A DNA stretch of 64,000 bases from an uncultured Gammaproteobacteria bacterium. GTDB lineage: Bacteria > Patescibacteriota > Microgenomatia > UBA8517. Positions 14,514 to 55,647 of this stretch are shown piece by piece. The translations under genes were made by a program, and so were the position numbers. Numbering within the stretch: the first letter of the stretch is position 1; each line of letters opens with the position of its first letter. A model generated the notes under the pieces. That model had not been told where the DNA came from, ran no database searches, and saw only the letters and a program-made list of their open reading frames with translations. The stretch is from contig CAZYCE010000006.1 of NCBI GenBank assembly GCA_964645605.1, positions 2,981 through 66,980 on the forward strand, in the 5' to 3' direction.

Positions 14514-15665
14514 GTGAACTATATGGATAAAGTTGTAATAATCATGCCCACTTGGAACGAGCTGGAAAATATTAAGGAAATGGTCCAGGTTCTTACGGAA
14601 GAGGAATTTCCCAAAATTAACGCCGATATGGAGCTTCTGGTGGTCGACAATCATTCTACAGACGGTACCGCCGAGGTGGTCGAGGCAGCCGCGAGTACTC
14701 ACAAAAATGTTCACATAGTCCAACAACTAAACAACGGACTTGGCTGGGCATATGTTACCGGTATGCGCTACGCAATGGAAAAACTTAATGCAGATGCCGT
14801 GATGGAAATGGATGCGGATTTTCAACACCCTCCGCGTTTTGTCAAACCCATGGTTGAAGCTTATCTGAATGGAGCGGATTATGTTATCGGTAGCCGTTAT
14901 ATTAAAGGCGGTTCGGTTCCGAAGGATTGGGCAATCAGCAGGAAAGCAGTAAGCTTTTTCGGAAATATGTTTATCCGTATTTGCCTTTTGAATTTTAAAA
15001 TTCACGATCTGACCACAGGTTTCAGACTTACTAAAGTTCATGGAGTGCTGGATAAAATTGAACTCGAAAAACTTCACAACCTTGACAGATTTTCCCATAA
15101 AGTTGACCTTCTTTATCAGTCGCTTAAAAATTCCACAAAAACCGTGGAAGTGCCGTTGGAATTTGCCTCCAGGACTAAAGAGAAATCTAAATTTAATTGG
15201 AAGGAAATGATTGCCACTTTTAAATTGGCGATTGTCTTGGGAATAAAGGATAAAGAACGTTTTATTAAGTTTGGCACGGTTGGGTTTATTGGTTATCTGG
15301 TTAATGCGATTTTCCTTAAAATTCTGACTGTAGCAGGTAGCCCCGGCATTATTGCTTGGTCACTCCCGGTGGAATTGTCGATAATCAGCAATTTTATTTT
15401 GAACAATATTTGGACTTTTAAGAAGGAAAAAATTAAAGGAGTAAAGGCGATCGGTTTAAAGTTTTTGCAGTTTAACGGTACTTCATTAGGAGCTCTTTTG
15501 ATTCAGACTGTTGCCGGAAGCGCTGGCGATATTTTATTCGGGGTTGGTGCCAGGCAAATTCTCTTACCGTTCATAATAGTATTTTTGGTTTTGCCTTATA
15601 ATTATTTTATGTATAATGCTGTTATTTGGAAAACGTGGAAGTTGCCTTGGGCAAAGAAGTCTTAG
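14514..15665 (+). CDS. Polyprenyl-phosphate sugar synthase (DPM1/GtrB-like GT2) fused to a GtrA-like flippase domain
   Basis: N-terminal GT2: IIMPTWNELENI, VVDNHSTDGT, EMDADFQHPP. C-terminal four-TM domain with GtrA signature FIKFGTVGFIGYLVNAIFLKIL...ISNFILNNIWTFK. Confidence 0.75.
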   Translation: MNYMDKVVIIMPTWNELENIKEMVQVLTEEEFPKINADMELLVVDNHSTDGTAEVVEAAASTHKNVHIVQQLNNGLGWAYVTGMRYAMEKLNADAVMEMDADFQHPPRFVKPMVEAYLNGADYVIGSRYIKGGSVPKDWAISRKAVSFFGNMFIRICLLNFKIHDLTTGFRLTKVHGVLDKIELEKLHNLDRFSHKVDLLYQSLKNSTKTVEVPLEFASRTKEKSKFNWKEMIATFKLAIVLGIKDKERFIKFGTVGFIGYLVNAIFLKILTVAGSPGIIAWSLPVELSIISNFILNNIWTFKKEKIKGVKAIGLKFLQFNGTSLGALLIQTVAGSAGDILFGVGARQILLPFIIVFLVLPYNYFMYNAVIWKTWKLPWAKKS

Positions 15666-15670
15666 CTTTT

Positions 15671-15970
15671 TCAGGTCGAAGCTTGGTAGACAACCGTTTC
15701 CTGACGAATATCTTTATATTCCTTCATTTTCTCTTCAATTAAATCGGTTTCAATAAGGTCATGGACCAGGGGACGCACTTCACCCCTTTGGGCATATTGT
15801 GTTTGAGATTTTCCGTCGCAATGCGGGCAAATATCTCTTGGGGGAAAACTTGGTTCATTACAGTTTGAACAAATGCTTCCGGTCAGCCTGTATCTTTGTT
15901 GATTTGCGCGCCAATATCTGGGGGCTTCCATTTGATAAATAGTTAGTCGGGAATCCTGGAAAAAACCCAT
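15671..15970 (-). CDS. Hypothetical zinc-ribbon protein
   Basis: CSNCN...CPHCDG, two CxxC pairs; 99 aa. Confidence 0.4.
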   Translation of the reverse strand: MGFFQDSRLTIYQMEAPRYWRANQQRYRLTGSICSNCNEPSFPPRDICPHCDGKSQTQYAQRGEVRPLVHDLIETDLIEEKMKEYKDIRQETVVYQAST

Positions 15971-15989
15971 GAATTAAGCTCTAAACGTT

Positions 15990-17156
15990 TTAGAGAAATG
16001 GAGCCCAATTGCTGATCGGCATAACGTTTTGGGAGATGAAGGCTAGGGAATATAGATAAATCGGAATTGCAATAATTCCAAGAGCTATTTTAACCTCTCT
16101 TTTGGCCAGTACGTCCGAGAACGCAACAAAAAGAAACGGAACTGCCGGTAGGAAATATCTTAGAATATCCCGGTGGGCCACAAATAAAATTACCAGAAAA
16201 AACAAACCGGCGAACGAAGCATATTCAAATTCCTTTTTCTGAAAGAGTTTATAAACTCCGATCGCACCCATTACATAAATAAATATAATTTCCTCAAGCC
16301 AGTATGTTCCCACCCAGGGCGTTGCATAGTTGAATATCTGAAACGGGGGAAATCCCAGGTGAATATTGTCCCCGGAGTGAAAATAGGCCAAGAAATTCCC
16401 TTGGGTGACTTGATAAAAAACAAAAACCAGGAGTAGTCCTACCGGAATCAACAAAAGCGGGTAGATCTTTTTGAAATTAAAGCTTAATTTTTTATTTCTG
16501 ATCGACTCAAGTAGATAGTAGATTCCGTATGCTCCGAAAAGGAGAATGCCCGGGGATTTAGTAAAAGTTGCAATCATTCCCCAGACACCACTTAGCCAGA
16601 ACTTTTTATTTTTGAAATAATAAACCGAGGCGATAATGCCGGCAACGAAAAGAGGGTCGGCGGACCCTACCGACCTTACGATCAACCATCTCGCAGGGAA
16701 AATTGAAAAAAGAAAGGTCAAAAACATTGCATTTTTTTCATCAACAAACTGAGAAATAAGCTTTTCGAAGAAAAAAATTGCCAAAAATGACGAGATGGCG
16801 GTCACTGCTAGCATTGCGTACGGGTAATTAATAATGACTCCAAACAGCCTTATTAATAACGGGAACAAAGGGAAGTGGGCTGCGTAGTATTCAGTAGGTA
16901 AAGGAAATTGAAAATTGGCTCCAATTAAGGCCTTGTTATATAAGGTTTTGGCAACAACCATATAAAGAGGTCCGTCATAATTTGATACGATGGTTGTCAT
17001 TCCGTCTTGCGGGAGGGGAATTCCCCAAAAAGAATCCAGTCTTAGGAAAAAAGGTAGCCAAACCAAAAGCGTCGGGACAAGAGCAAAAGCTGCAATAAGA
17101 AAAATTTTGCCAAATTTTTTACTCATCAGAATGATATTAGCATGAGATGAGCCCAA
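15990..17156 (-). CDS. Polytopic membrane protein, probable GT-C-fold glycosyltransferase
   Basis: 388 aa, about 10 TM helices, aromatic-rich loops; no precise family assignment possible by eye. Confidence 0.45.
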   Translation of the reverse strand: MGSSHANIILMSKKFGKIFLIAAFALVPTLLVWLPFFLRLDSFWGIPLPQDGMTTIVSNYDGPLYMVVAKTLYNKALIGANFQFPLPTEYYAAHFPLFPLLIRLFGVIINYPYAMLAVTAISSFLAIFFFEKLISQFVDEKNAMFLTFLFSIFPARWLIVRSVGSADPLFVAGIIASVYYFKNKKFWLSGVWGMIATFTKSPGILLFGAYGIYYLLESIRNKKLSFNFKKIYPLLLIPVGLLLVFVFYQVTQGNFLAYFHSGDNIHLGFPPFQIFNYATPWVGTYWLEEIIFIYVMGAIGVYKLFQKKEFEYASFAGLFFLVILFVAHRDILRYFLPAVPFLFVAFSDVLAKREVKIALGIIAIPIYLYSLAFISQNVMPISNWAPFL

Positions 17157-17173
17157 TATGCTAGACTTCGTAT

Positions 17174-17884
17174 GTGGACACTCTTATCAAAGAATTATCC
17201 GTTTTTCTGCCTACATACAACGAGGAAGGTAACATAGCAGGAGTAATTGAAAATGTCGTCAAGGCTGCTTCTCAAAATGCCGAAAAATGGGAATTAATAG
17301 TGGTAGATGACGGTTCTATCGATTCAACGGCAGAAATTGTTTCAAAATTTGTAGAGTCAGACAGCCGCATTAAAATAATTAAGCACAAGAAAAATTCCGG
17401 TTATGGAGCGTCTCTCAAAACAGGGTTATACAATTCGAAATATAATTGGATTTCATTTATAGATTCCGACGGCCAGTTTGATTTCGGCGAAATAAATAAA
17501 TTTATTCAAAAGCAAAAGGAAACGGGAGCGGATATCGTCATTGGTTACTACAAAAAAAGAAAGGCGTCATCCTTAAAAATAATCACCAGTAAAATTTGGG
17601 AAGCCCTGGTGTTCATCCTTTTCGGTCTTAAAGTACGGGATATTGATTGTGGATTTAAACTTATTTCCAAAAGGGTGATTGAAAAAATTCCCAAACTGGA
17701 AAGTGAAAGAGGGGCGTTTATCAGCAGTGAACTATTGGTTAAGGCAAAAAAGAACGGATTCAAAATAGTGGAGATTCCCGTTACTCATTACCCGCGGTTA
17801 AAAGGAGAAGGGACGGGAAGAAAATTAAATGTGATTGTCGAAAGCTTCATAGATCTTTTCAGGCTGTGGAAAAAATTGCGATGA
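17174..17884 (+). CDS. GT2 polyprenyl-phosphate glycosyltransferase (DPM1/GtrB-like)
   Basis: LSVFLPTYNEEGNI, VVDDGSIDST, FIDSDGQFD. Confidence 0.8.
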   Translation: MDTLIKELSVFLPTYNEEGNIAGVIENVVKAASQNAEKWELIVVDDGSIDSTAEIVSKFVESDSRIKIIKHKKNSGYGASLKTGLYNSKYNWISFIDSDGQFDFGEINKFIQKQKETGADIVIGYYKKRKASSLKIITSKIWEALVFILFGLKVRDIDCGFKLISKRVIEKIPKLESERGAFISSELLVKAKKNGFKIVEIPVTHYPRLKGEGTGRKLNVIVESFIDLFRLWKKLR

Positions 17885-19437
17885 GGATTAGAAATTTTAT
17901 ATTTGGCATCAAAAATTGGATCAAAAAAAACCCTGTTGAATTTTGGATGCTTTTAGCGATCTTAATAATCGGGGCATTTTGCCGTCTTTACAAAATTGAC
18001 CAATACATGACTTTTTTAGGAGATGAGGGCCGTGACGTGATTATCGTCCGAAGAATTTTTACTGAGGCCCATCCGCCCTTAATAGGTCCGGGGACATCGG
18101 TTGGGAGTATGTATTTAGGTCCCCTTTATTACTACATGATGGCAATTCCGCTTTTATTAGCCGGTTTTTCGCCCGTGGGGCCGGCCGTGATGGTTGCTCT
18201 TTTGGGGGTTGCTACAATTGGTTTTGTCTGGTGGGTGGGTAGGATTTGGTTTTCCAAAACCGCCGGTCTGATTGCGGCGGGACTTTATGCGATTTCTCCG
18301 ACCGTTATAACTTTTTCCCGCTCTTCATGGAACCCGGACGTAATGCCTTTTTTTGCACTTTTGTTAACTTATTCTATATGGAAAGTTTGGAGGAAAGGCG
18401 AATTTAATTGGTTAATTGTTATGGGGATTTCTTTTGCCTTTGTGCTCCAATCACACTACTTGGGGCTTCTTTTGGCCCCAACGCTTTTTATATTTTGGTT
18501 TTTAACATGGAGAAATCTTAAATCGATTGGAAACTCAAAATCAAAAATTAGAAATTTCATTAAAAAATCACTCTTGGGTTTAGGATTTTTCCTACTGTTA
18601 ATGAGCCCTCTCCTAATTTTTGATTTAAGGCACGACTTTTTAAACTCAAAAGCTATTTATCAATTTATTGTTAACCGTGATGTGGCCCTTTCCGGAAGCC
18701 TTTTTGTGGCATTTTCCAAAATTCCCAAAGTATTTAATTTAATAAATTCAAGTTTACTTGCAGGAAAAAATACCCTGGCGGCGGTTGCCTCTTCAGTCTT
18801 TATCGTTTCCGGGGTGGTTTACGTTTTTGCCGAAAGTTTTGTCAAAAAGAAAAATTTTAAAATTAAGCCGGAGTATTGGCTTCTTTTTTCCTGGCTTTTC
18901 TTTGGTCTGATTGGCCTTAGTCTTTATAAAATGGAAATCTATGACCATTATTTTGGTTTCCTTTTCCCTGTGCCCTTTATTATTTTCGGATCGTTTATGG
19001 CTAAATTAATTGAAGACGGAAAAATTGCTAAGGTATTGGGTACGGCGGCGATACTTTATTTGGTAGTTATGGGCCTGATTCAGAATCCATTCAGATATGC
19101 TCCAAACCGCCAGCTGCAAAGGTCGCAAGATGTGGCTAAAAAAATATTAAGCCTATCCGCTGACAATTCTTTTAATTTGGCCGTTATTGCCGAAAGGAAC
19201 TACGAAGACGGTTATCGATATTTTCTTGAACTTTGGGGAGGAAAGGTTCTTCATGCCGATAGGTGGGATCCCGCAACCATTTCTGACCAACTTTTTGTTG
19301 TTTGCGAAAATGAACCTTCAAAATGTGATCCGACACACTCCCCGAAAGCGGAAGTTGCAAACTTCGGCATGAGTAAAATTGACGGGCAATGGGAGGTGGA
19401 TGGGGTTATAATATATAAACTTGCTCACGCACAATGA
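17866..19437 (+). CDS. GT-C-fold membrane glycosyltransferase (ArnT/PMT-like), subfamily B
   Basis: First extracytoplasmic loop FLGDEGRDVIIVRRIF...LIGPGTSVGSMYLGPLYYY; about 11 TM; overlaps upstream GT2 by 19 bp. Confidence 0.65.
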   Translation: MEKIAMRIRNFIFGIKNWIKKNPVEFWMLLAILIIGAFCRLYKIDQYMTFLGDEGRDVIIVRRIFTEAHPPLIGPGTSVGSMYLGPLYYYMMAIPLLLAGFSPVGPAVMVALLGVATIGFVWWVGRIWFSKTAGLIAAGLYAISPTVITFSRSSWNPDVMPFFALLLTYSIWKVWRKGEFNWLIVMGISFAFVLQSHYLGLLLAPTLFIFWFLTWRNLKSIGNSKSKIRNFIKKSLLGLGFFLLLMSPLLIFDLRHDFLNSKAIYQFIVNRDVALSGSLFVAFSKIPKVFNLINSSLLAGKNTLAAVASSVFIVSGVVYVFAESFVKKKNFKIKPEYWLLFSWLFFGLIGLSLYKMEIYDHYFGFLFPVPFIIFGSFMAKLIEDGKIAKVLGTAAILYLVVMGLIQNPFRYAPNRQLQRSQDVAKKILSLSADNSFNLAVIAERNYEDGYRYFLELWGGKVLHADRWDPATISDQLFVVCENEPSKCDPTHSPKAEVANFGMSKIDGQWEVDGVIIYKLAHAQ

Positions 19438-20417
19438 ACTACAAAAAATCAGCCGAAATACTTTCAGAGATTAAAACATCTAACGATATTTTAATTAATT
19501 GTCACAGAGGACCGGACTCAGACTCGGTAGGCTCCGCCCTGGCTTTATCGCAAGCTTTGAAAAGTTTAGGGAAAGAAGCCACGGTAATTTGCCCCAGCGA
19601 CATTCCTCCGGATCTGGCTTTTTTAAAGGGTGCTAACGAAATCGTACGGGTTAATTTTACATCCTTTGATTTTTCAGCTTACGATCTGTTTTTGATTCTT
19701 GATTCCTCGACATACTCGATGGTTACGGGTTTAAAAGATTCGGACAGACCCAACATAAAATCAGTTGTAATTGACCATCATCCTTCAAAGGAAAAGTTCG
19801 GGGATATAAACTTGATTGATCCTGCTATGACGTCCACAGGTGAACTTCTTTATAGAATATTGGACGATTGGGGAGTTTCTCTTACTAAAGATATATCCGA
19901 GTGTCTGTTGACGGGAATAATCGGAGATACGGGAACCTTCCAATATCAAAATGTGGGAGAGGCCACTTTGAGGATTGCCGCGGAGTTAATGGAAAAAGGT
20001 GCCGACAAAGACAAAATTGTTTACAACCTTTATAGAAATATCGATTTCAAAGAATTAAAAATGTGGGGTAAATTTATTGAAAGTATGAAAATCGAGGACG
20101 GTTTTGTCTGGTCGGCGCTGCCGCTTTCGACATACAAAGACTTTGGAGAATATTCTTATGCGAAAGAAGATGTTGCAAATTTATTTTTTCCGATTGTTAA
20201 AGGAACGGAATTTGGAATTGTAATGGTTGAAACGTCAGAAAACGTTTTGTCTGTAAGTTTTAGATCCAGAAACGGATTTGATGTTTCAAAGATTGCGAAC
20301 GAAATCGGAGGAGGAGGGCATAAAGCCGCCTCCGGTGCCAGGATAGAGGGGGTTCCTTTTCAAGAGGCTGTAAATCGTGTTCTTGCTGCGGCCGGAAAGC
20401 ATGTTAAAAAAGATTAA
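19434..20417 (+). CDS. DHH/DHHA1 phosphoesterase (NrnA-like nanoRNase/pAp phosphatase)
   Basis: DHH motifs (CHRGPDSDSVGS, VIDHHPS) and DHHA1 GGGGHKAASGA. Confidence 0.8.
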   Translation: MNYKKSAEILSEIKTSNDILINCHRGPDSDSVGSALALSQALKSLGKEATVICPSDIPPDLAFLKGANEIVRVNFTSFDFSAYDLFLILDSSTYSMVTGLKDSDRPNIKSVVIDHHPSKEKFGDINLIDPAMTSTGELLYRILDDWGVSLTKDISECLLTGIIGDTGTFQYQNVGEATLRIAAELMEKGADKDKIVYNLYRNIDFKELKMWGKFIESMKIEDGFVWSALPLSTYKDFGEYSYAKEDVANLFFPIVKGTEFGIVMVETSENVLSVSFRSRNGFDVSKIANEIGGGGHKAASGARIEGVPFQEAVNRVLAAAGKHVKKD

Positions 20418-21894
20418 AGGCGCTCAAATATATAATTTTCTTCTGGTTTTGGTCTTAGGGGTTGCGGCGTTCTTAAGATTTTTCCGTTTGTCCGATTTGC
20501 TTGGTTTTTGGTACGATCAGGGAAGGGACGCGCTGGTCATTTGGGACATGGTTTACCAAGGTAAGTTTACCTTGATTGGACCCATGATGGGATTTACGGG
20601 AATTTTCAGAGGGGCTTGGTACTACTGGATGATTGCTCCCTTTTATTGGTTAGGACACGGCAATCCAATTTATCCCTCGGTATTTTTGATATTGACTTCT
20701 ATTGTTGCAATTCTCCTTCTTTATAAGTTGGGTCATGAAATGGAGGGTTCAAAGACGGGACTCTTGGCGGCTTTTATCGCCTCTGTCTCAGGATATATTA
20801 TTGGAGCTTCACGTTGGTTGTCGGATCCGACACCAACGCTTTTGGTAAGTGTTGTCTTGGTTTGGTCACTTTTTAAATTTTCTAAAGGTAGCCGTTGGGC
20901 GCTGCCTCTTTCGGGATTTTTGGCCGGAATGGCACTTCAATTTAGTGCCGCAACGGAAATATTTTACGTTCCTGCAATTATTCTGATAGTTTTCCTTTTC
21001 AGAAAAAAGCTGAAAATCAGATTGACCAATTTGCTGCTGACGGGGGCGGCTTTTGTTATCCCTTTTGTGCCACAGCTACTTTTCGAGGTACGTCATCCCG
21101 GTGTTCAAAGCAGTGCCCTTTTGAATTTTCTTTTCCATGAAAAAACATTTACATATGCGTTTTGGGAAATAATCAAAACCAGAATTCCTTTTGATTACAA
21201 TATGATTGCTTCCAAGTTTTGGATAAACGGAGGTATGTTTTTTGCTCCGTTTTTTGGCATTTTTCTGGTTCTTTTAATTTTAAATTGGAAAAAACTTTGG
21301 CAGTCGGACAAATTTAAAATTATTTTTATTTTGGCTCTTGCCCCGCTTATCGGGACGTTGTTCTTTGTCAGCAATTTGGGAGGAGTATACGAGTATTATT
21401 TTACAGGCTATTATTTGATTTGGATTCTTCTTTTCTCGTATGTTTATATGACTGCCTTCAAAAGCAAATTAGTGAAAGTTACTTTAGCGGTATTTATGGC
21501 TTTCCTTTTGTTTTTCAATATAAAAGACTTTAGGGAATCTTATTTTAAACCTCTATCCGATCCGAAAATTATAGCTTTTAAAAACCAAATTTCGGCGGTT
21601 GATTGGGTCTACGAAAATGCCTCGGAAAGGCCCTTCAATGTTGATGAATATGTTCCTCCGGTCATTCCCTATGCCTATCAATATTTATTTTTGTGGAGAG
21701 GCGAAACCGTGCATAAAACTCAGCCTCTTACCAAAAACGTAGACTTACTTTATACTCTATATGAGGTGGATCCAAATCACCCCGAAAGGTTGCAGGCTTG
21801 GCTGGATAGACAAAAGGGCATCGGCAAGGTTTTAAAGGAAGAAACCTTCGGGGGGATAACAGTTCAGGAGAGAGAAAGAATAACTAAAAAATGA
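20401..21894 (+). CDS. GT-C-fold membrane glycosyltransferase, subfamily B
   Basis: FWYDQGRDALVIWDMV...LIGPMMGFTGIFRGAWYYW, a paralog of the 17866 and 28073 products; internal ATG 20401 chosen. Confidence 0.65.
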   Translation: MLKKIKGAQIYNFLLVLVLGVAAFLRFFRLSDLLGFWYDQGRDALVIWDMVYQGKFTLIGPMMGFTGIFRGAWYYWMIAPFYWLGHGNPIYPSVFLILTSIVAILLLYKLGHEMEGSKTGLLAAFIASVSGYIIGASRWLSDPTPTLLVSVVLVWSLFKFSKGSRWALPLSGFLAGMALQFSAATEIFYVPAIILIVFLFRKKLKIRLTNLLLTGAAFVIPFVPQLLFEVRHPGVQSSALLNFLFHEKTFTYAFWEIIKTRIPFDYNMIASKFWINGGMFFAPFFGIFLVLLILNWKKLWQSDKFKIIFILALAPLIGTLFFVSNLGGVYEYYFTGYYLIWILLFSYVYMTAFKSKLVKVTLAVFMAFLLFFNIKDFRESYFKPLSDPKIIAFKNQISAVDWVYENASERPFNVDEYVPPVIPYAYQYLFLWRGETVHKTQPLTKNVDLLYTLYEVDPNHPERLQAWLDRQKGIGKVLKEETFGGITVQERERITKK

Positions 21895-21972
21895 ATCAGG
21901 GTAGAAATATTACATTAAACAAAAGGCCAAATATTGTTCAGGCAAATAAATTTGAGAAGAATTTCTGACGCA

Positions 21973-22722
21973 ATGAAACCATTTTTGAGTGTAGTTATAC
22001 CGGCATATAACGAGGAAATTAATCTTAAGCGCGGAGTTTTGGATAGTGTTTATGGTTACCTGAAAAGTAAAGACTTTACTTGGGAAGTAATTGTGATGGA
22101 TGATGGGTCTTCCGACGGAACTGCCGACTTTGTTGAAAAATTCGCGAAAAAACACCAGGGCTTTTCGGTGAGACGTGAGCCGCACAGGGGAAAGGGCGGA
22201 ACAATAATTGCCGGTGCCGAGGTGGCAAAGGGCGAATATATTCTTTTTGCCGACATGGATCAATCCACTCCCATGGATCAATTTGATAAGTTTATTCCAA
22301 AGCTCAAAGGCGGCTACGATATTGCGATTGGCAGCCGCTCAGGACGTCCGGGCCAGCCAATAATTCGAAAAATCATGGCTTACGGGTTTGTGATCCTGAG
22401 GACGATAATTCTAAGATTACCGTTCAAAGACACCCAATGCGGATTCAAAGTTTATAAAAGCCGGGTTGCCAAAGAGATATTTAAAAGGACTCAAATATAC
22501 CGGAAAAACCAAATCGCCAAAGTAGGTTCCGTGACGGCAGGTTTTGACCTCGAAGTTTTATACATTGCGCGTAAATTGAAGTTAAAAATTGCCGAAATTC
22601 CGGTAGAGTGGTATGAGTATGGACAGAGGAAAGAGGTTAACCCCATTACGGACTCAATAGAAGGATTTCGGGGCATGATGATGGTTAGAATTAATGCTCT
22701 TCAGGGAAAATACAAAGTTTAG
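21973..22722 (+). CDS. GT2 polyprenyl-phosphate glycosyltransferase (DPM1/GtrB-like)
   Basis: LSVVIPAYNEEINL, VMDDGSSDGT, FADMDQSTP. Confidence 0.8.
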   Translation: MKPFLSVVIPAYNEEINLKRGVLDSVYGYLKSKDFTWEVIVMDDGSSDGTADFVEKFAKKHQGFSVRREPHRGKGGTIIAGAEVAKGEYILFADMDQSTPMDQFDKFIPKLKGGYDIAIGSRSGRPGQPIIRKIMAYGFVILRTIILRLPFKDTQCGFKVYKSRVAKEIFKRTQIYRKNQIAKVGSVTAGFDLEVLYIARKLKLKIAEIPVEWYEYGQRKEVNPITDSIEGFRGMMMVRINALQGKYKV

Positions 22723-22730
22723 GTTATACG

Positions 22731-22739
22731 TGCTACAAT
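22731..22739 (+). promoter_or_regulatory. Extended -10 element TGcTACAAT, 6 nt upstream of ATG 22746 (candidate leaderless promoter)
   Basis: Sequence read directly; no Shine-Dalgarno between the element and the start codon. Confidence 0.3.
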
Positions 22740-22745
22740 TTAGGC

Positions 22746-23645
22746 ATGGCTTCCAAGATTTCGGTAGTGATTAATACACTAAACGAGGAAAAAAATATCT
22801 CCCGGGCTATATCCTCAACGAAAATTTTTGCAGACGAAGTTGTCGTGGTGGATATGGAATCCTCCGATAAAACATGCGAAATTGCCAAAAAAATGGGAGC
22901 GAAGGTTTTCACTCACGAAAAAACCGGATATGTTGAACCGGCCAGAAATTTTGCCATTAGTAAAGCCATTAATCCTTGGGTTTTAATATTGGATGCTGAT
23001 GAAGAAATACCGGCAAACCTTGCTTCCCGGATTCAGAAAATTCTGAAAGAGCCGAAGGCTGATTATTACAGAATCCCGCGGAAAAACATTATTTTCGGAA
23101 AGTGGATCAAACATGCCCGTTGGTGGCCGGATATGAATATCCGTTTGTTTAAAAAAGGACATGTATCCTGGAACGAAGTAATCCATGCCGTACCCATGAC
23201 TCAAGGTATAGGCGGAGACATTGAGGAAAGGGAAGACCTGGCAATAATTCATTACAATTACGATTCGATTGAAGACTATCTTTCGCGGATGAACAACTAT
23301 ACGACTCACCACGCAAGAATAAAAATTGACGAAGGTTATAAATTTACTTGGAAAGATATTGTTGTAAAACCCGTTGGAGAATTCTTAAGCAGATATTTTT
23401 ACGGTCAAGGCTATAAAGACGGTCTTCACGGTCTTGCCTTGTCAATGCTCCAGGCTTTTTCGGAACTGGCGGTTTATTTGAAGATTTGGCAGAAAGAAAA
23501 ATTTACCGAAAAGGATCTGAAACTGGATGAGGTTACGGCTCTTTTCCAGGAACAGGAAAAAGAAATCCGATATTGGCAGGCGGACGCTTCCGTAAAAGAA
23601 GGCGGAAACTTTTATGATAGGATCCGTAGAAAATTCAAAATTTAA
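22746..23645 (+). CDS. GT2 glycosyltransferase (WaaE/KdtX-like subfamily)
   Basis: ISVVINTLNEEKNI; C-terminal block YRIPRKNIIFGKWIKHARWWPDMNIRLFKKG shared with the 24605 and 54769 products. Confidence 0.75.
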   Translation: MASKISVVINTLNEEKNISRAISSTKIFADEVVVVDMESSDKTCEIAKKMGAKVFTHEKTGYVEPARNFAISKAINPWVLILDADEEIPANLASRIQKILKEPKADYYRIPRKNIIFGKWIKHARWWPDMNIRLFKKGHVSWNEVIHAVPMTQGIGGDIEEREDLAIIHYNYDSIEDYLSRMNNYTTHHARIKIDEGYKFTWKDIVVKPVGEFLSRYFYGQGYKDGLHGLALSMLQAFSELAVYLKIWQKEKFTEKDLKLDEVTALFQEQEKEIRYWQADASVKEGGNFYDRIRRKFKI

Positions 23646-23646
23646 A

Positions 23647-24594
23647 ATGAGCAATTCCCCGAAGGTTTCTATCATTATCTTAACTACAAATGGGTTGGCG
23701 ATGATGCGTGACGAGCTTGAAAACATCGGCAAACTTGACGTCAATGGTGTCAATGCGGAATGCATCGTTGTTGATAACGACAGTTCCGACGGAACGGAAA
23801 AAGAACTGGCGGACTATAAACTTCCGAATATGGAATATAAGTTTATGGAAGCCGGAAAAAATTTGGGATTTGCCGGCGGAAACAATATCGGGATCAAGAA
23901 TGCACTTAAAAGAGGGGCTGACTATATAATTTTAATGAACAATGATTTGGTTTTACCCGGTGATATTCTTAAAAAACTTGTCAGCTACATGGAAGGCAGT
24001 CCGGAAGCCGGCCTGGCCTCACCAAAAATGTATTTTGCTGAAGGGTATGAGTTTCATAAGGACAGATATAAAAAATCGGAGCTTGGAAAGGTGATTTGGT
24101 ACGCCGGAGGCGTGATTGACAGAAAAAATGCTTATTCAAGTCACAGGGGCGTTGATGAGGTCGACCATGGACAGTATGATCAAATCAAGGATACGGATTA
24201 TGCAAGCGGAGCTTGTGTAATAATCCGCCGCGCAGTTTTTGAGAAAATCGGATATCTCGATGATTCGTTTTTTTTGTATTGGGAAGATGCGGATTTCAGT
24301 GAAAGAGCAAAAAAAGCCGGTTTTGGAGTAATGTACTATCCAGGGACACACCTTTGGCACAAAGTATCCGCATCAACCGGCGGCTCGGGAAGCCCTACAA
24401 ATGATTATTTTTTAACCAGGAATAGGTTGTATTTTGCCGAAAGATATCTAAGTCCGAGAACCAAATTTGCCGTATGGAGAGATACGCTTAAACTCATTTT
24501 CGCGGGAAGGACATGGCAGAAAAAAGGTGCAATTGATGCTATTTTGGGAATAAAGGGAATGGGCGCATGGCGTAAATATCTGATTTCTAGATAA
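23647..24594 (+). CDS. GT2 glycosyltransferase (rhamnosyltransferase-like)
   Basis: VSIIILTTNG, VVDNDSSDGT, WEDADFSERA (DxD/ED region). Confidence 0.75.
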   Translation: MSNSPKVSIIILTTNGLAMMRDELENIGKLDVNGVNAECIVVDNDSSDGTEKELADYKLPNMEYKFMEAGKNLGFAGGNNIGIKNALKRGADYIILMNNDLVLPGDILKKLVSYMEGSPEAGLASPKMYFAEGYEFHKDRYKKSELGKVIWYAGGVIDRKNAYSSHRGVDEVDHGQYDQIKDTDYASGACVIIRRAVFEKIGYLDDSFFLYWEDADFSERAKKAGFGVMYYPGTHLWHKVSASTGGSGSPTNDYFLTRNRLYFAERYLSPRTKFAVWRDTLKLIFAGRTWQKKGAIDAILGIKGMGAWRKYLISR

Positions 24595-24604
24595 CCAATT
24601 TCTA

Positions 24605-28071: not shown

Positions 28072-28072
28072 C

Positions 28073-29554: not shown

Positions 29555-29572
29555 AAATGGTAGAATTTAGGC

Positions 29573-44316: not shown

Positions 44317-44340
44317 AGATAAAGTATATATAATAATATT

Positions 44341-45756: not shown

Positions 45757-45768
45757 TAATCTCTGAAA

Positions 45769-47403: not shown

Positions 47404-48482
47404 TGTTCCTTTATCTCGTAGGTGCTACCTAGATACTTTTCAAGTCTGAGTGATTCTCTGGTTTTTACATCGATAGATATAACTGCAATTTGGAAAATTA
47501 CGAAAATGATAGTGATGGCTAAAAATATTCTACCGATTATATTCCCCTTTAGATTTAGTAGGCTGAAAATTCCCTGCGAAATTACAAAAATTATTATTGG
47601 GAAGAAAAGAATAAGGCGGTTTAACGACACAATATCTTTTGCAAGGATCGATGGAATTGTCAATATAGTAGAGATTAATAAAATTTTTCTTGTACGTGAA
47701 TTTTGGAGTAGTTTATACAGTCCGTAGGCAAAAGGGATTATGAAACCCAAAATTATCGGTGGACTAAATGAAAATCCTAAAAGCTTGTATTGCGGGGTAA
47801 AAAAAGCCACGGGCATCAGCTGAGAAATATATTTTAAGACAAAGTACTCGCTAAAAAATAGATATTTATTCTCGGAAAGTCTAGCCAGATTTTTATATCC
47901 TTTTTCAGCGGCAGCACCCTGGTAACGGTTTACAGTATTAAGAAGACCGGGATCGGAAAAAATTTGTATCTCGTTACTCAAACTGTTTCTAAATCCGGTT
48001 ACATTTCTAATGGTAAATAGAAAAAGCGGAATTAATAGTACAGTAGTAATCAGTAAAGAAGTTTTCAAGTCTTTTTTGGGCACTATCTTAAATAAAATTA
48101 ACGCTGAAAATATAAGGGGAACAATCAATAAAAAGTTTATGGAGCTGTAAATCCCAATTATCAAACCGGAAATCAAAGTAATGTTCCCCAAAATTCTATT
48201 TTTTCCCCGAACGAGCAAAAGCCCATGGATGGTCAGCAGTGTCGGGAAGAGTAGAAAAACATAAAATGAATGGGCAAGTGTTAAGTAATAAACCCATGGG
48301 GAAAGAAGGTAAATTAAAATCGGAATAAATCGAGTTTTGCCTTTCAAAAAGTGTCCCGCTATAAGCCAGATTATAAGGGCGTTAATTATAAAAATTGGGA
48401 TGTAAAATTGATCCGGAATTGTTACTGTTGTGCGTAGTACATCGGCAAAAAATAAATTTTTCACTGTATAATGAAGAGGCAT
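47400..48482 (-). CDS. Polytopic membrane protein, shorter family-A-related paralog lacking the N-terminal DE loop
   Basis: C-terminal half resembles family A (KYLFFSEYFVLKYISQLMP compared with NYLSHFTPDFLF); start set to the internal ATG because the 5' end overlaps a divergent gene. Confidence 0.4.
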   Translation of the reverse strand: MPLHYTVKNLFFADVLRTTVTIPDQFYIPIFIINALIIWLIAGHFLKGKTRFIPILIYLLSPWVYYLTLAHSFYVFLLFPTLLTIHGLLLVRGKNRILGNITLISGLIIGIYSSINFLLIVPLIFSALILFKIVPKKDLKTSLLITTVLLIPLFLFTIRNVTGFRNSLSNEIQIFSDPGLLNTVNRYQGAAAEKGYKNLARLSENKYLFFSEYFVLKYISQLMPVAFFTPQYKLLGFSFSPPIILGFIIPFAYGLYKLLQNSRTRKILLISTILTIPSILAKDIVSLNRLILFFPIIIFVISQGIFSLLNLKGNIIGRIFLAITIIFVIFQIAVISIDVKTRESLRLEKYLGSTYEIKEQ

Positions 48483-48484
48483 AT

Positions 48485-49969
48485 ATGCATAGGTTACCAT
48501 ATTTAAAAATAGTTGTCTTCACTATTGTTTTGATATTTACCTTCATTCTTAGAGCTCACAATTATGAAAGGGTTCCGACCTCAAACCATTTAGATGAGCA
48601 GCTCTATGCGCTTTCCGGAATTAATTTAATTGAAACAGGAACTCCGGTCTCGTGGTCAACTCTGGATTACCCGAAAAGTGCAGAGGTTTTTAAAGGTGCA
48701 ATCTCATATAAAGGAGGAGCGCCTTCCGCGTCGGTAACTTTGTATAAACCCTGGCTGGATGAGCCGCCTGCCTTTTCTTTAATAGTTGGCGAGGCAGCCC
48801 ATCTTTTCCATGCCGACAGGAACGGTTTTATCCCATCCTCCTACATCCGGTTTCCGATGATTTTTATATCTGCCCTAACTTCGATTTTCGTATTTCTGAT
48901 AGCCAGAAAAGTCAGCGGCTACTGGACGGGGATATTGGCAATGCTGATTTACGGAACTGAACCGATTATGGTAATGGCTTCAAGATCGGCCATGCCGGAG
49001 ACTTTTATTGCACTTCTTTTCTGTTTAAGCGTTTATCTGCTCTTAAAATATCAAGATTCTAAAAAATTTATATATATTGCCCCGATTCCTATTCTGGCCG
49101 GAATTGCGGGGCTTTCTAAACCAACAGGCTACTTTATATTGCCGCTGGCTATTTTTGTAGTTTTTGTAAGGCTTTATAAGGATAAGCCTGTTAAATGGCG
49201 GCCGATAATTAAAAACCTTGCCTATTTAATTCTTGCAACCCTGCCTTTTCTTGCGATTTACATCTGGTACGGCAATCATTTTAGTCCGGAAATATTTTCA
49301 AGGATTCTTTCTATTCAAGGTTCCCGTCCCGCAGGTTTTAACAGTCTTGCCTGGTTTTTCATAACCCCCAGTTTTGATACATCAATTTTCAGGAGCAGCT
49401 GGTATGTTTTTTGCCTTGCCGCGGCCGCCTTCTTTGTTTTCCGACCTAAAGAAAAATCGGCGCAACTTATTAGTTTGAGTTTTGTTTATTGGCTGGCCGT
49501 TATAATGCTGTCCTCGGGTGAAAATGATCTTTTAGCCTGGTACCGTTTTCCGATATTGCCTTTTTTGGCAATTTTTGGCGCATGGGGGATTCAATATCTT
49601 TTTAAGAAAGCTGATTTCTTTGCGACATTCTTTGCTGCAGGGTTTCTGCTTGGAAGCAGAATGCTTTTAGTTAACGCTTTTCGTCCGAATATTGCAGTCG
49701 GAACCTATCGTCTGGCTTTTTGTAGCCTGGTTGCCCCCTCTTTACTTAATTTGGTGTTCAAAAAAGACTGGCTTAAGAAAATTTCTCAAATTGTAATTAT
49801 TGGTGTGGTAATTGTGGGTATGTGGTGGAACGTTAAATATATTTACAATGCTTATGAACTTGCTTGCGAGAGCCAAACTTGTCCTATGGTTCCGTCTACC
49901 GCGCTCTCAAGCCTTCACTATCCCTTGATCTGGCGCTTCTTTGTATTAGGCAAACCTGCCCTACAATAA
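48485..49969 (+). CDS. GT-C-fold membrane glycosyltransferase (ArnT/PMT-like)
   Basis: NHLDEQLYALSGINLIETGTPVSW first-loop motif; internal ATG 48485 chosen to minimise the divergent overlap. Confidence 0.55.
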   Translation: MHRLPYLKIVVFTIVLIFTFILRAHNYERVPTSNHLDEQLYALSGINLIETGTPVSWSTLDYPKSAEVFKGAISYKGGAPSASVTLYKPWLDEPPAFSLIVGEAAHLFHADRNGFIPSSYIRFPMIFISALTSIFVFLIARKVSGYWTGILAMLIYGTEPIMVMASRSAMPETFIALLFCLSVYLLLKYQDSKKFIYIAPIPILAGIAGLSKPTGYFILPLAIFVVFVRLYKDKPVKWRPIIKNLAYLILATLPFLAIYIWYGNHFSPEIFSRILSIQGSRPAGFNSLAWFFITPSFDTSIFRSSWYVFCLAAAAFFVFRPKEKSAQLISLSFVYWLAVIMLSSGENDLLAWYRFPILPFLAIFGAWGIQYLFKKADFFATFFAAGFLLGSRMLLVNAFRPNIAVGTYRLAFCSLVAPSLLNLVFKKDWLKKISQIVIIGVVIVGMWWNVKYIYNAYELACESQTCPMVPSTALSSLHYPLIWRFFVLGKPALQ

Positions 49970-50009
49970 TTTACATGACGTTTTGAAGCTGGTAACATTG
50001 AGGTAATAT

Positions 50010-51659
50010 ATGAAGAAGAAACTTTATCCGTTTTTTTTGGGGCTGATTCTTATTACCGCTTTCTTTCTGAGAATTTACAAAGTTACTTCCATTCCCCCTT
50101 CCCTAAACTGGGATGAAGTTTCAATAGGTTACAATGCCTATTCCATCCTTAAAACCGGACGCGACGAGTGGGGGGTAAAATTCCCGTTAAATTTTAAATC
50201 GTACGGAGAGTATAAACTTCCCGGGCAGATTTATGCCTCGATACCGGCGATTGCCGTTTTTGGATTAAATGAATTTGGGGTAAGGATTACTCCCGTAATT
50301 TACGGCACACTAAGCGTTTTATTGCTTTATCTTTTAGTCCAGGAATCTTTTGGTAAAAAAGAAATATCCTTAATGTCAGCCTTTTTCCTGGCGGTTTCCC
50401 CTTGGCACATACAGCTGACTAGGGCATCTTTAGAGTCTTCTTTTGCGCTTTTCTGGGTGGTGATGGGAGTTTGGTTTTTCCTTAAAGGTTTGAAAAAACC
50501 AAAGTGGCTGGTTTTTTCAATGCTTCCTTTTGCGGTTTCCGTTTATACCTACAATAGTGCCCGCGCCTTCATTCCGCTTTTTCTTTTTGCCTTGGTGATT
50601 ATTTATAGAAAGTATTTCCGGAAAGTTAAAAAATGGTTTTTTGCGGCGGGGATTTTGTTTGCCGTTCTGATGGCTCCTTTGATTCCGATGGTTGTTTCGG
50701 GAGAAGCCTCCGCCAGATACAAACTTGTAAGCATCACCGATGAAAAGGGTTTGATTCCCAGAATTGAAGAGAGAAGAAACAATTCAACTTTGCCGTCTAC
50801 CGTCAACAAAATGATAAACAATAGATATACGTATGTAAGTTACTATTTTGCAAGAAATTATTTGTCCCATTTTACTCCGGACTTTCTTTTTATCCACGGA
50901 GCAGGACATAGACAGCACCATGTTCAGGGGGTGGGAGAACTTTACTGGTTCCAGGCCCCATTCATTATTTTGGGGATCTATTATTTGTTAAAGAAAAAAA
51001 ATCCCAATTTGAAAGTTCTTGTTCCGTGGTTTTTACTGGCGTTTGTTCCGGTATCCGTAACAAATGACAGTATTCCGAATGCCTTAAGGACCTTAAATGC
51101 GGTTCCTGTTTACCAAATTTTTACGGCCTTGGGAATTTATTATGCTTATAAGCTGATCAAGAATAAAAAAGTTTTTAATGTACTTATCGGTGCGGTAACG
51201 GCTCTATTCTTAATTAATTTTGCCGTTTATTTTACTAACCTTTTTGTATATTATCCGCTCAGGTACTCCCGGGATTGGCAATATGGCAATAAAGAAGCTG
51301 TCGAATATATAAAAAACCACCGGGATAATTACGATTTAATTGTTTACAGCCGTACCTATGGCGAACCGCATATGTTCACTTTGTTTTATCTTGGTTATGA
51401 TCCCGCCAAGTTTCAAAATAGCCCAAACTTAGACAGGTTTGAAACATACGATTGGGTTAGGGTTTTGCGTTTTGATAAATTTTATTTTCCGGATCTGGGG
51501 GATGCGGGTACAAAGTATCAGGATGTAGTTAATGCGAATCCCGGCCAGAGAATTCTTTTTATAGGTAAACCTCAGGATTTTCCTGCGGAAGCGGCAGTGC
51601 TTGAACAAATTAATTTTCTTGACGGCACCGGCGCCTTCAAAATAGTTGAAAAGATATGA
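50010..51659 (+). CDS. GT-C-fold membrane glycosyltransferase, paralog family A
   Basis: PSLNWDEVSIGYNAYSILKTGRDEWGVKFPLNF; GAGGT Shine-Dalgarno-like sequence 5 nt upstream; C-terminal DGTGAFKIVEKI. Confidence 0.65.
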   Translation: MKKKLYPFFLGLILITAFFLRIYKVTSIPPSLNWDEVSIGYNAYSILKTGRDEWGVKFPLNFKSYGEYKLPGQIYASIPAIAVFGLNEFGVRITPVIYGTLSVLLLYLLVQESFGKKEISLMSAFFLAVSPWHIQLTRASLESSFALFWVVMGVWFFLKGLKKPKWLVFSMLPFAVSVYTYNSARAFIPLFLFALVIIYRKYFRKVKKWFFAAGILFAVLMAPLIPMVVSGEASARYKLVSITDEKGLIPRIEERRNNSTLPSTVNKMINNRYTYVSYYFARNYLSHFTPDFLFIHGAGHRQHHVQGVGELYWFQAPFIILGIYYLLKKKNPNLKVLVPWFLLAFVPVSVTNDSIPNALRTLNAVPVYQIFTALGIYYAYKLIKNKKVFNVLIGAVTALFLINFAVYFTNLFVYYPLRYSRDWQYGNKEAVEYIKNHRDNYDLIVYSRTYGEPHMFTLFYLGYDPAKFQNSPNLDRFETYDWVRVLRFDKFYFPDLGDAGTKYQDVVNANPGQRILFIGKPQDFPAEAAVLEQINFLDGTGAFKIVEKI

Positions 51660-53170
51660 AAAAAGAACGGATTTTTTTATTTCTAATTCTTGGATTTTTC
51701 TTGTTTACAAGGTTTTATAAAATTAGCCAAATCCCGCCCTCCGTTTACTGGGATGAAGCTTCGATCGGGTATAACGCCTATTCCGTTTTACAGGACGGCC
51801 GGGATGAGTGGGGGAATTTTCTGCCTCTTCATTTTAGGGCTTTTGGTGAATTTAAATTACCGGTTTATATTTATTCCGTCGCAATATCGGAAAAATTATT
51901 CGGATTGAATTCTTTTTCTGTCCGTCTTCCGTCCGTTATTTATTCCGCCTTTTCCCTGATTCTGGTTTACCTTATTTCCAAAAAGATTTTTAGTGGAAGC
52001 TCGGGACTCCTTTCTGCCTTGGTTTTTTCGGCTTGTCCTTGGTATTTTATCTTTAGCCGTACGGGTTATGAAGTATCTGCCGGTTTATTCTTTTTCCTTT
52101 TGGGAACATACTTTTTCCTGAAAACCGAGAAAAAAAATTACTTTTTCCCGTTTGGCATTTTGTCTTTTATTCTTTCTTTTTATAGTTACAACTCATTTCG
52201 CATCCTCATTCCTATTTTCTTACTGGTTTTCGGTTTGGCCTTTATCTTAAGAAAGGATGTAAAAACAAAAGCTAAATTATTTTATATAGTTTCCGGGATA
52301 GTTTTGTTTCTATTGGTTTTGTTTCCCGTTTATCGTCTTTACAAATTTGATGCCGGTGGCGCGCGCTTGACACAGGTACAAGTCTCGGGAGCGGCGGATG
52401 TATTTAAAAATTATCTTTCCCATTTTTCCCCGCAATTTCTTTTTAATAGCGGAGACTCCAACTCCAGGAGTAGTGTTCCCGGTTTTGGAGAGCTTTTTCC
52501 GGTGATTGCTCCATTTTTGATAATCGGTACTTTTGTTATATTCAAGAAAAAGCAAAAATTTTGGTGGTTGCCGTTTTTGGCAATATTGCTAGGTCCGATT
52601 CCCGCCGCGGTCACCAGGGAGTCTCCCCATGCCTTAAGGGCAATCTTAATGATTCCCTTTCTTTCGATGGTTGCCGGAGTGGGTATTGATAGTTTTGCAG
52701 GTTTTTTCGGAAGAGCTAAAAAGATGTTTATCTTTGGAGTGCTTTTCTTGCTTGCCGTATCTTTTAAAAATTATTTTATCGATTTTACAACAAAATATTC
52801 TTCTGATTCGTCTGCCCAGTGGCAATTTGGCTACAAGAAAATTTTTGAGGATTATCTTGCCGATTTTGCCGAATATGACAAGGTTGTAATTTCCGATGCC
52901 TATGCCCAGCCTTATATTTTTGGGCTTTTTTATCAAAAATATGACCCGGGATATTTCAGACAAAGTGTTGTCTACAATACGGTTGATCAATGGGGCTTTT
53001 CGACCGTCAAAAGTTTTGATAAATTCCTGTTTAAGAAAGTAACAGCGGACGATTTATCCGAAAACTCAATAGTTTTTGCAACCGTACAAGACAAAATAAA
53101 CGATGAAAAACCGGTGGAAGAAATTAAGAACCCCGACGGGACAACTGCTTTTTGGGTGTACACAAAATGA
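51656..53170 (+). CDS. GT-C-fold membrane glycosyltransferase, paralog family A
   Basis: PSVYWDEASIGYNAYSVLQDGRDEWGNFLPLHF; C-terminal NPDGTTAFWVYTK; ATGA overlap with upstream gene. Confidence 0.65.
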   Translation: MKKERIFLFLILGFFLFTRFYKISQIPPSVYWDEASIGYNAYSVLQDGRDEWGNFLPLHFRAFGEFKLPVYIYSVAISEKLFGLNSFSVRLPSVIYSAFSLILVYLISKKIFSGSSGLLSALVFSACPWYFIFSRTGYEVSAGLFFFLLGTYFFLKTEKKNYFFPFGILSFILSFYSYNSFRILIPIFLLVFGLAFILRKDVKTKAKLFYIVSGIVLFLLVLFPVYRLYKFDAGGARLTQVQVSGAADVFKNYLSHFSPQFLFNSGDSNSRSSVPGFGELFPVIAPFLIIGTFVIFKKKQKFWWLPFLAILLGPIPAAVTRESPHALRAILMIPFLSMVAGVGIDSFAGFFGRAKKMFIFGVLFLLAVSFKNYFIDFTTKYSSDSSAQWQFGYKKIFEDYLADFAEYDKVVISDAYAQPYIFGLFYQKYDPGYFRQSVVYNTVDQWGFSTVKSFDKFLFKKVTADDLSENSIVFATVQDKINDEKPVEEIKNPDGTTAFWVYTK

Positions 53171-54768
53171 GAAAGTATCTAAGCTGCATAATTCTTTTTA
53201 CTATTTTTATAGGAGCGCTTTTTTTAAGAATTTATAAGTTGGATCAAGTTCCTGCTTCCCTGAATTGGGACGAGGTGGATGCGGGCTATAATGCCTACAC
53301 TATTGCGAATTGGGGTGTTGATGAATGGGGCCGTAAGTTTCCTCTGGTTTTTCGCTCGTTTTATGACGATAAACATCCGGTCCACATTTATATAACAGCG
53401 GTTTTTGTTAAGTTTTTTGGACTCAGTGATTTTACAACGCGTCTTCCCAGCGCGATTTTTGGAGCTTTAGGGGTCTTAGTTGTTTTTTATCTGGGCAGAC
53501 GTTTATTCAAAAATGATTTGCCTGCATATTTTGCGGCAATTTTTCTGGCGGTCTCACCATACCATCTTCAGTTCTCCAGAGGACTTTGGGAAGTTAACTT
53601 CGCCTTCTTTTTCTTTATATTGGGGCTTCTGTTTTTTTACCTCGGGAGAGATAAAAATAGATGGTTCTTCCCGTTTTCTTTTTTAGGGTTCGGACTTTCA
53701 ATGTACTCATATCATTCGGCCAAAGTCGTGGTTCCTCCGATGATAATCCTTCTTTGCATTTTATATTTCAAGGATTTGATAAAAAACAAAAAAGCCCTTT
53801 TACTCAGTTTTATTGTTTTAGCCGTTTTTATAGCAGGTTTTATTTTTAATCCCGGATTATTGGGTTTCGCCCGTGCCGAACAAAACCGATTTCCCGAAGG
53901 GTCAATAAAGGAAACTTATCTTTATCAAAAAACGGGGAATAGATACTTGGCTACTTTAGAAATTGCAGCCGGAAATTATACAAAATACTTTACTCCGGAT
54001 TACCTTTTTGTACACGGCGATCAAAACCCGCGGAATTCGGTTAAAGTGTTCGGGGAGTTCTATAAAATTGAAGCACTTTTTATTGCCGCCGGAATTGTCT
54101 TTATGTTGGTAAGGCCAAGAAAGGAATGGCTCGTTCTTGCCGTCTGGCTTGCGCTTGCACCGATTCCGGGTGCTCTTTCAGGTTTCACTCCAAACGCAGC
54201 CAGAGGGCTTTTTATGATGGGTAGCATGCATCTTGTTGGCGCATACGGGCTTTATAGCTTAGCGAATTTATTCAGAAACAAGACGGTTCGGGGTGCCGTT
54301 GTAGTTGCCCTTCTGGCCCCCCTTTTTTGGGAATTTTCAAATTATCTTAACTATTACTACACAAATTATTACAAGAAAGACGCTATTGAGTGGCAATACG
54401 GCATGAAACAGATTGTTGCCTACATTAAGAACAATCCCTACTATGACAAAATATATATGACCAAAGAAAGACAACAACCATATATATTTATCCTGAATTA
54501 TCTGGAGTATCCCGTAAAAAAATACCTGGCCTCGGTTCGGTATGACGAAAGTCAGAGTAAAAGTTACAATGTAGCCAGATCCTTCGGAAAATTCCAGTTC
54601 TCGGATTGGAATACGGTTGAGAGTTACCCCGCCCCTTATGTGCTTTATGTTCTTACTCCAAGCCAGTATGATGGGTTAAGGTACAGACTGATGTTTGATG
54701 TGGTTGATTTGATAAAATATCCCGACGGATCAGATGCTTATTTTTTGGTAACCGCCAAAGTATATTAA
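53152..54768 (+). CDS. GT-C-fold membrane glycosyltransferase, paralog family A
   Basis: ASLNWDEVDAGYNAYTIANWGVDEWGRKFPLVF; C-terminal YPDGSDAYFLVTAKVY. Confidence 0.65.
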   Translation: MGVHKMRKYLSCIILFTIFIGALFLRIYKLDQVPASLNWDEVDAGYNAYTIANWGVDEWGRKFPLVFRSFYDDKHPVHIYITAVFVKFFGLSDFTTRLPSAIFGALGVLVVFYLGRRLFKNDLPAYFAAIFLAVSPYHLQFSRGLWEVNFAFFFFILGLLFFYLGRDKNRWFFPFSFLGFGLSMYSYHSAKVVVPPMIILLCILYFKDLIKNKKALLLSFIVLAVFIAGFIFNPGLLGFARAEQNRFPEGSIKETYLYQKTGNRYLATLEIAAGNYTKYFTPDYLFVHGDQNPRNSVKVFGEFYKIEALFIAAGIVFMLVRPRKEWLVLAVWLALAPIPGALSGFTPNAARGLFMMGSMHLVGAYGLYSLANLFRNKTVRGAVVVALLAPLFWEFSNYLNYYYTNYYKKDAIEWQYGMKQIVAYIKNNPYYDKIYMTKERQQPYIFILNYLEYPVKKYLASVRYDESQSKSYNVARSFGKFQFSDWNTVESYPAPYVLYVLTPSQYDGLRYRLMFDVVDLIKYPDGSDAYFLVTAKVY

Positions 54769-55647
54769 ATGAACAAATTGTCACAAAACAAAAAGGTACG
54801 TCTATCGGTTGTTCTTGCCACCCGCAATGAAGAAGAAAATATCGGCAGATGTCTTGAATCGGTAAAAGATATTGCTGATGAAATTATAGTTTTTGACGAA
54901 TTCTCAGATGATTTAACCCGTGAGATTGCGGAAAAGTACGGCGCCAAGGTATTTGAGGAGCCTCATCATGAAATTTTCCATATAACCAAAGAAAAAGCTT
55001 TGGAAAAAGCGGAAGGGGAGTGGATCCTGCAACTTGATGCCGATGAAGTTGTAACCCCGGAGCTTTCGGAAGAAATTAAATTAGTAATTAATAATCAGAA
55101 ATCGGAAATTCCGTCCGGGAAACTTAAATTATTTGAACGCCATCAAAAACTACTCGAAAAAAGGGACGGCCGAATCGGAACCGGCTCGGGCGGCCCGATT
55201 GTCGGTTATTTTATTCCCAGACGCAATATGTTTTTGGGCCGTCCCCTGATCCATGCCGGTGTTTATCCCGATGGGGTAATACGTTTGGTTAAAAAGGGAT
55301 TTGCTCATTTTCCCCAAAAATCCGTTCACGAGCAAATAAGTCTTGACGGGGAGGTTTCCTGGTTGGGCAGTGACCTTTTGCATTACGACTCCCCGACACT
55401 CAAGAAATATCTTATGAGGCTAAACCGCTACACTGATCTTCATGCCCAGGAATTGAAAAACAAAAAGGTCTCCAAAAATCCGTTTTCATTTATTTATTAC
55501 ATATTTTTTAAGCCTTTGGGCGTATTTCTCAACCTGTATTTCCGTCACTTGGGAATTCTTGACGGGGCGAGGGGTTTTTTGTGGAGTTTTTTTTCGGCAA
55601 CGCATTATCCCGTTGCCTACTTTAAATATATTACGGGTAAGGTTTAG
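54769..55647 (+). CDS. GT2 glycosyltransferase (WaaE/KdtX-like subfamily)
   Basis: LSVVLATRNEEENI, LQLDADEVV, YFIPRRNMFLGRPLIHAGVYPDGVIRLVKKG. Confidence 0.75.
   Translation: MNKLSQNKKVRLSVVLATRNEEENIGRCLESVKDIADEIIVFDEFSDDLTREIAEKYGAKVFEEPHHEIFHITKEKALEKAEGEWILQLDADEVVTPELSEEIKLVINNQKSEIPSGKLKLFERHQKLLEKRDGRIGTGSGGPIVGYFIPRRNMFLGRPLIHAGVYPDGVIRLVKKGFAHFPQKSVHEQISLDGEVSWLGSDLLHYDSPTLKKYLMRLNRYTDLHAQELKNKKVSKNPFSFIYYIFFKPLGVFLNLYFRHLGILDGARGFLWSFFSATHYPVAYFKYITGKV

Follow-up and report, generated by a model that had tools for sequence, protein, structure and literature searches.

What does an ultra-small bacterium build with a locus made up almost entirely of glycosyltransferase genes? The host is an uncultured Microgenomates (CPR/Patescibacteria) bacterium of the Microgenomates/Woesebacteria group, and the locus spans positions 14514-55647 of the window, the 64,000-nucleotide stretch of DNA that was analyzed. 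It contains 33 genes, 32 open reading frames of at least 200 aa and one of 99 aa, all intact and tightly packed or overlapping. They comprise 19 polytopic GT-C-type genes, 10 GT2/GT4 genes, one Wzx/MOP flippase and three non-glycosyltransferase genes (Table 1). An earlier note on this DNA had reported 19 multi-TM proteins and one Wzx flippase, and both numbers held: hydropathy yielded 19 non-Wzx polytopic proteins and the flippase has a strong Polysacc_synt_3 match. The total of 11 GT2/GT4 enzymes given there falls to 10 because the block at 22746-28071, credited with seven, has six genes. That nearly every gene is a glycosyltransferase is mostly right, the exceptions being 19434, 41910 and 15671-15970 (genes are named by their first coordinate). 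The nucleotide-sugar genes said to lie upstream are there: galE, a galU-like gene and rmlB, rmlC and rmlD, with the fusion of RmlB to its C-terminal domain kept in related loci L001 and L083. We favor, with a probability of roughly 65%, a lineage-conserved cell-envelope glycan locus that uses polyprenyl-phosphate carriers in two tiers.

Table 1 Genes of the locus and of the upstream sugar-supply region, with positions in the window.
Feature	Coordinates	Strand	Evidence or remark
GalE (UDP-glucose 4-epimerase), sugar supply	7326..8318	+	NCBIfam TIGR01179 386.6 bits, cutoff 262.3
GalU-like sugar-1-phosphate nucleotidylyltransferase	9517..10449	+	best NCBIfam match galU 267 bits, full length, under cutoff 326.8; Pfam NTP_transferase
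RmlB (dTDP-glucose 4,6-dehydratase) fused to ~320-aa C-terminal domain	10452..12374	+	TIGR01181 392 bits (cutoff 365), aa 2-323/640
RmlC-like epimerase	12367..12936	+	Pfam dTDP_sugar_isom 123.6 bits
RmlD-like reductase	12953..13849	+	Pfam RmlD_sub_bind 159 bits
DPMS-type polyprenyl-phosphate glycosyltransferase, GT2 catalytic domain + 4-TM GtrA/DPMS domain	14514..15665	+	Pfam GT2, GtrA_DPMS_TM
Small zf-ChsH2-like protein, 99 aa	15671..15970	-	ORF call; counterparts in L001, L083
Family F, short GT-C, NYDGPLY in loop 1	15990..17156	-	
Soluble DPM1/ArnC/GtrB-like GT2, 236 aa	17174..17884	+	best solved relatives ArnC, chondroitin synthase, GtrB, DPMS
GT-C family A (PMT_2)	17866..19437	+	PMT_2 51 bits; D53 in loop 1
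DHH/DHHA1 phosphoesterase, NrnA-like	19434..20417	+	Pfam; NCBIfam NrnA 111 bits, under cutoff
GT-C family A (PMT_2)	20377..21894	+	PMT_2 34.9 bits
Soluble DPM1/GtrB/ArnC-like GT2	21934..22722	+	top three solved relatives DPMS, GtrB, ArnC; probable ATG start at 21973
GT2, GmaR/SunS-like subgroup	22746..23645	+	Pfam GT2; paralog of 24605, 54769
GT2, subgroup with 26348, 27241	23614..24594	+	
Short GT2, partial GT-A match	24605..25333	+	GT2 30 bits; L082 ortholog 87% identical
GT4 glycosyltransferase, GT-B fold	25311..26351	+	Glycos_transf_1 80 bits + Glyco_transf_4
GT2	26348..27244	+	
GT2	27241..28071	+	
GT-C family A	28073..29554	+	PMT_2 20.6 bits, sub-threshold; 31% identical to 31098, E 5e-31
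GT-C family A2 (PMT_2/PMT, DE motif)	29573..31138	+	PMT_2 59 bits, PMT 37.6 bits
GT-C family A	31098..32480	+	PMT_2 35 bits
Wzx/MOP-family flippase	32536..34032	+	Polysacc_synt_3 189.7 bits; NCBIfam MOP flippase; 94% identical in L082
Family D1, Pfam-less GT-C, OST-like fold	33986..35719	+	overlaps Wzx stop codon
GT-C family C (PTPS_related)	35712..37427	+	22 bits, sub-threshold; DD motif; 39% identical to 37408, E 1e-116
GT-C family C (PTPS_related)	37408..39072	+	27.1 bits, cutoff 26.4
GT-C family C (PTPS_related + PMT_2)	39026..40702	+	45 bits
GT-C family E (GT87/PIG-M-like)	40699..41913	+	GT87 34 bits, Mannosyl_trans 28 bits
'h', N-terminally anchored or secreted, 202 aa	41910..42518	+	one N-terminal hydrophobic segment
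Family D2, second D paralog	42469..44316	-	29-30% identical to 33986, E 1e-81
GT-C family B (PMT_2, DE motif)	44341..45756	+	
GT-C family B (PMT/PMT_2)	45769..47403	-	
Family G, short GT-C-derived protein	47400..48500	-	no Pfam match; hhalign 99% to family B
GT-C B2 (PMT_2/PMT, DE motif)	48395..49969	+	L082 ortholog 61% identical; real start probably about 50 codons downstream
GT-C family B	50010..51659	+	
GT-C family B	51656..53170	+	
GT-C family B	53152..54768	+	PMT_2 69 bits
GT2, GmaR/SunS-like subgroup	54769..55647	+	best NCBIfam match SunS

Pfam gathering scores (PMT_2/PMT, PTPS_related, GT87) were passed by 13 of the 19 polytopic proteins; 28073 and 35712 are sub-threshold yet clear paralogs of other members. 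Profile-profile comparison connected families A, B, A2 and B2 with probabilities of 98-99.6%, C with A or B at 96-97%, D with A at 93% and G with B at 99%, and found no similarity between the GT-C families and Wzx. These links and the Pfam matches bear out the earlier assignment of the multi-TM proteins to the GT-C type rather than to transporters. An aspartate in loop 1 (as DE, DD, HD, YDG or a lone D) is present in 18 of the 19, so the claim of first-loop DE motifs or related architectures applies to these and fails for 47400. This family G protein lacks TM1, loop 1 and the C-terminal domain (its residues 35-320 align to residues 93-377 of family B in hhalign) and is probably non-catalytic; its 51 homologs are mostly about 360 aa long. 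Could most of the polytopic proteins be inactive as glycosyltransferases, being decayed paralogs, transporters or ArnT-type resistance enzymes with a single target, so that the locus serves no concerted pathway? The missing catalytic loop of 47400, several Pfam scores close to or under threshold and the failure to detect solved relatives by sequence for any of the polytopic proteins fit that idea. We consider it very improbable: the loop-1 aspartate is conserved within families, the reading frames are intact, GT-C orthologs persist over dozens of species, no profile resembles the Wzx transporter and CPR bacteria are not known to possess lipid A, on which ArnT acts.

Families D (33986 and 42469) and F (15990), for which there are no Pfam models, are GT-C folds; their top structural matches include ALG12, STT3, ALG9, ALG3 and ALG6. 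The two D proteins have the motifs FWxAxGHDGxWHIAL and GESxFW in common, and family F retains 68-85% identity across its best 120 relatives. Both Pfam-less families, D with its Wzx-coupled, OST-like fold and the very highly conserved F, had been overlooked in the first reading. Structurally, family D is nearest to the oligosaccharyltransferases AglB/STT3. Protein glycosylation by archaeal/eukaryotic logic is a possible but rather unlikely alternative, in which GT-Cs would finish a lipid-linked oligosaccharide outside the membrane and D, in the role of a divergent oligosaccharyltransferase, would pass it on en bloc to surface or secreted proteins, for example pilins, S-layer-like proteins or 'h'. 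In 59 of 74 loci D comes immediately after Wzx, a 1639-aa ORF elsewhere is a fusion of Wzx, a domain X and D, and the Haloferax Agl pathway offers a parallel component for component. Family D, however, has no WWDYG motif and no STT3 match in either Pfam or NCBIfam, and DPY19 and AftA, which are not oligosaccharyltransferases, also rank high among its structural matches.

Four GT2s had been described as DPM1/GtrB-like, and three are. The 14514 protein matches Pyrococcus furiosus DPMS (5mlz) from end to end, TM domain included (E 2.7e-38, query aa 6-373), matches of 17174 to ArnC, GtrB and DPMS cover most of its length, and 21934 (21973 in the earlier note) is of the same type; a TM anchor is missing from both 17174 and 21934. 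As stated there, these three polyprenyl-phosphate sugar synthase-like GT2s adjoin GT-C genes. The fourth candidate, 54769, was rejected: the best-matching solved structures are GmaR (E 2e-14) and ThuS/SunS, with DPMS only at E 9e-4, and it is paralogous to 24605 and to 22746 (34% identity, E 9e-35 in blastp).

In 80 species-representative genomes the same gene families surround the family-D gene in similar order, with the backbone conserved in Woese-, Blackburn-, Ames-, Shapiro- and Daviesbacteria. Adjacency of Wzx and D was counted over 74 loci, and presence of GT2, GT4 and A2 over 50 full-length loci: GT2 occurs in 50, GT4 in 49 and A2, with many positions more than 95% conserved among 46 sequences, in 38. 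The median for related loci is 7 GT-C-like genes in 21.7 kb; the GT-C density noted earlier does far exceed that of capsule or O-antigen loci, but such a density is normal in this lineage. Relatives repeatedly carry a SAM methyltransferase and, in 26 related loci, a YfhO-like GT-C, and an MptA_B-family match occurs in one. Non-glycosyltransferase genes recur as well. Counterparts of 15671 in L001 and L083 have precomputed PF12172 zf-ChsH2 matches (weak in L083), the 19434 type lies between A genes as an 'x' gene in about 10 related loci, and 'h', without a family match in Pfam or NCBIfam, is conserved within an E-h-D2 triad whose 'EhD' pattern is repeated across loci.

The backbone (Wzx, D, F and the GT2/GT4 block) is conserved, and the GT-C complement varies even in the closest relative, where D is 85% and Wzx 94% identical. 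That relative has no ortholog of 20377 (none in L083), carries a family-C-like gene in place of 28073 and a GT87-like gene in place of 31098, lacks the E-h-D2-B-B-G block and has an additional MarR, UppS-type cis-prenyltransferase and GT2. Such differences, together with a Logan assembly contig that breaks shortly after 14514, some 0.4 kb into the interval, would suit a serotype island of the O-antigen/capsule (Wzx/Wzy) type, acquired horizontally and variable between strains. We judge this improbable, given that backbone and families are kept in 80 species, a pattern that already goes most of the way towards conservation at one chromosomal position with vertical descent of Wzx, D and F. GC content is 0.37-0.43 in the interval and 0.38-0.44 in the flanks, without a shift at the borders; neither a tRNA nor a mobility gene marks the borders, and the scanned ORFs include no integrase or transposase. 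The flanks are housekeeping genes such as TrmD, with a junction collinear in the relative. Searches of the window and of the recurrent neighbours gave no initiating phosphoglycosyltransferase and no Wzy polymerase, and neither a chain-length regulator nor a ligase. Read as acquired or strain-variable DNA, the term "island" does not apply here, in view of the 80 Microgenomates species representatives and of borders such as these.

Lipid-carrier-dependent extracytoplasmic glycosylation, as first proposed, is still the best reading, and for donors, step order and acceptor we infer the following scheme for the two-tier glycan locus. In the first tier, GalE, the GalU-like enzyme and RmlBCD would supply UDP-hexoses and dTDP-rhamnose, from which the five GT2s and one GT4 of 22746-28071, perhaps joined by the sixth non-DPMS GT2, 54769, would build a lipid-linked oligosaccharide on the cytoplasmic face. 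Since the locus has no WecA/WbaP-type enzyme, a DPMS-like GT2 may initiate on polyprenyl monophosphate, in the manner of Haloferax AglJ. Wzx would flip the oligosaccharide, which a family-D GT-C would then use as substrate. The species flipped is not certain because Wzx-like proteins may also act in Dol-P-mannose translocation, as AglR can. In the second tier, 14514, 17174 and 21934 would load polyprenyl phosphate with single sugars, and about 16 ArnT/PMT-like, PTPS-related and GT87-like GT-Cs would spend these donors outside the membrane, each making one linkage that extends or branches the glycan or final acceptor. Candidate acceptors are protein, lipid or a peptidoglycan-linked polymer. For the monosaccharide carriers, the window offers no stand-alone flippase of the GtrA type.

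The same division of labour is found in N-glycosylation in Haloferax volcanii, where AglJ/G/I/E act on Dol-P alongside AglB and AglD/AglR/AglS, with AglF and AglP (PMC3871713). Shared features are DPMS-like GT2s on polyprenyl monophosphate, later GT2/GT4 steps on one carrier, a Wzx-like MOP protein, a PMT_2-type GT-C using Pren-P-sugar outside the membrane, an AglB-fold enzyme, a GalU-type enzyme, clustered genes and a methyltransferase, here found in relatives (PMC3871713). Here, by contrast, the host is a CPR bacterium, about 16 extracytoplasmic GT-Cs stand against one, and the AglB-like protein has neither WWDYG nor an STT3 sequence signature. Mycobacterial and corynebacterial LM/LAM and arabinogalactan assembly (Ppm1, PimE, MptA/B/C, AftA-D, Emb) likewise employs many GT-Cs outside the membrane with polyprenyl-P-sugar donors from a DPMS-like GT2; the GT87-type 40699, the MptA_B match in a relative and AftA among the structural matches of D add to the likeness. 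The mycobacterial genes are largely scattered over a 4-Mb genome, whereas here one 41-kb locus holds 19 GT-C genes and related Microgenomates have complete chromosomes of only about 0.8-1 Mb. Proteins of Emb or AftD size are absent, and identity to solved members is undetectable.

The eukaryotic ER lipid-linked-oligosaccharide pathway (ALG GT4/GT2, RFT1, ALG3/9/12/6/8/10, DPM1/ALG5, STT3) resembles the locus in its cytoplasmic GT-A/GT-B steps, MOP-type flippase candidate, STT3-fold enzyme and series of luminal or extracytoplasmic GT-Cs supplied by DPM1-type synthases; the likeness is one of logic and fold only, without sequence-level orthology. Gram-positive CsbB(GtrB)/GtcA(GtrA)/YfhO, enterobacterial GtrABC and ArnC/ArnT also pair a GtrB/ArnC-like GT2 with a GT-C that uses a monosaccharide carrier, and the YfhO-like GT-C of related loci fits this group. 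The CsbB/GtcA/YfhO comparison drawn earlier proved loose: the one GtrA-like TM domain is part of the 14514 fusion, and the window has no stand-alone GtrA/GtcA and no YfhO. Those systems attach a single sugar to a polymer made beforehand, unlike the roughly 16 GT-Cs plus a Wzx-dependent branch here. Wzx/Wzy O-antigen and capsule loci similarly bring sugar-nucleotide genes, a GT2/GT4 run and Wzx together, but here Wzy, Wzz, WaaL and the initiating phosphoglycosyltransferase are undetected, GT-C genes outnumber cytoplasmic glycosyltransferase genes about 2:1, and the backbone is conserved over an entire superphylum-level lineage. The locus recurs across the whole lineage and is therefore probably its main factory for cell-surface glycan, not an island specific to one strain.

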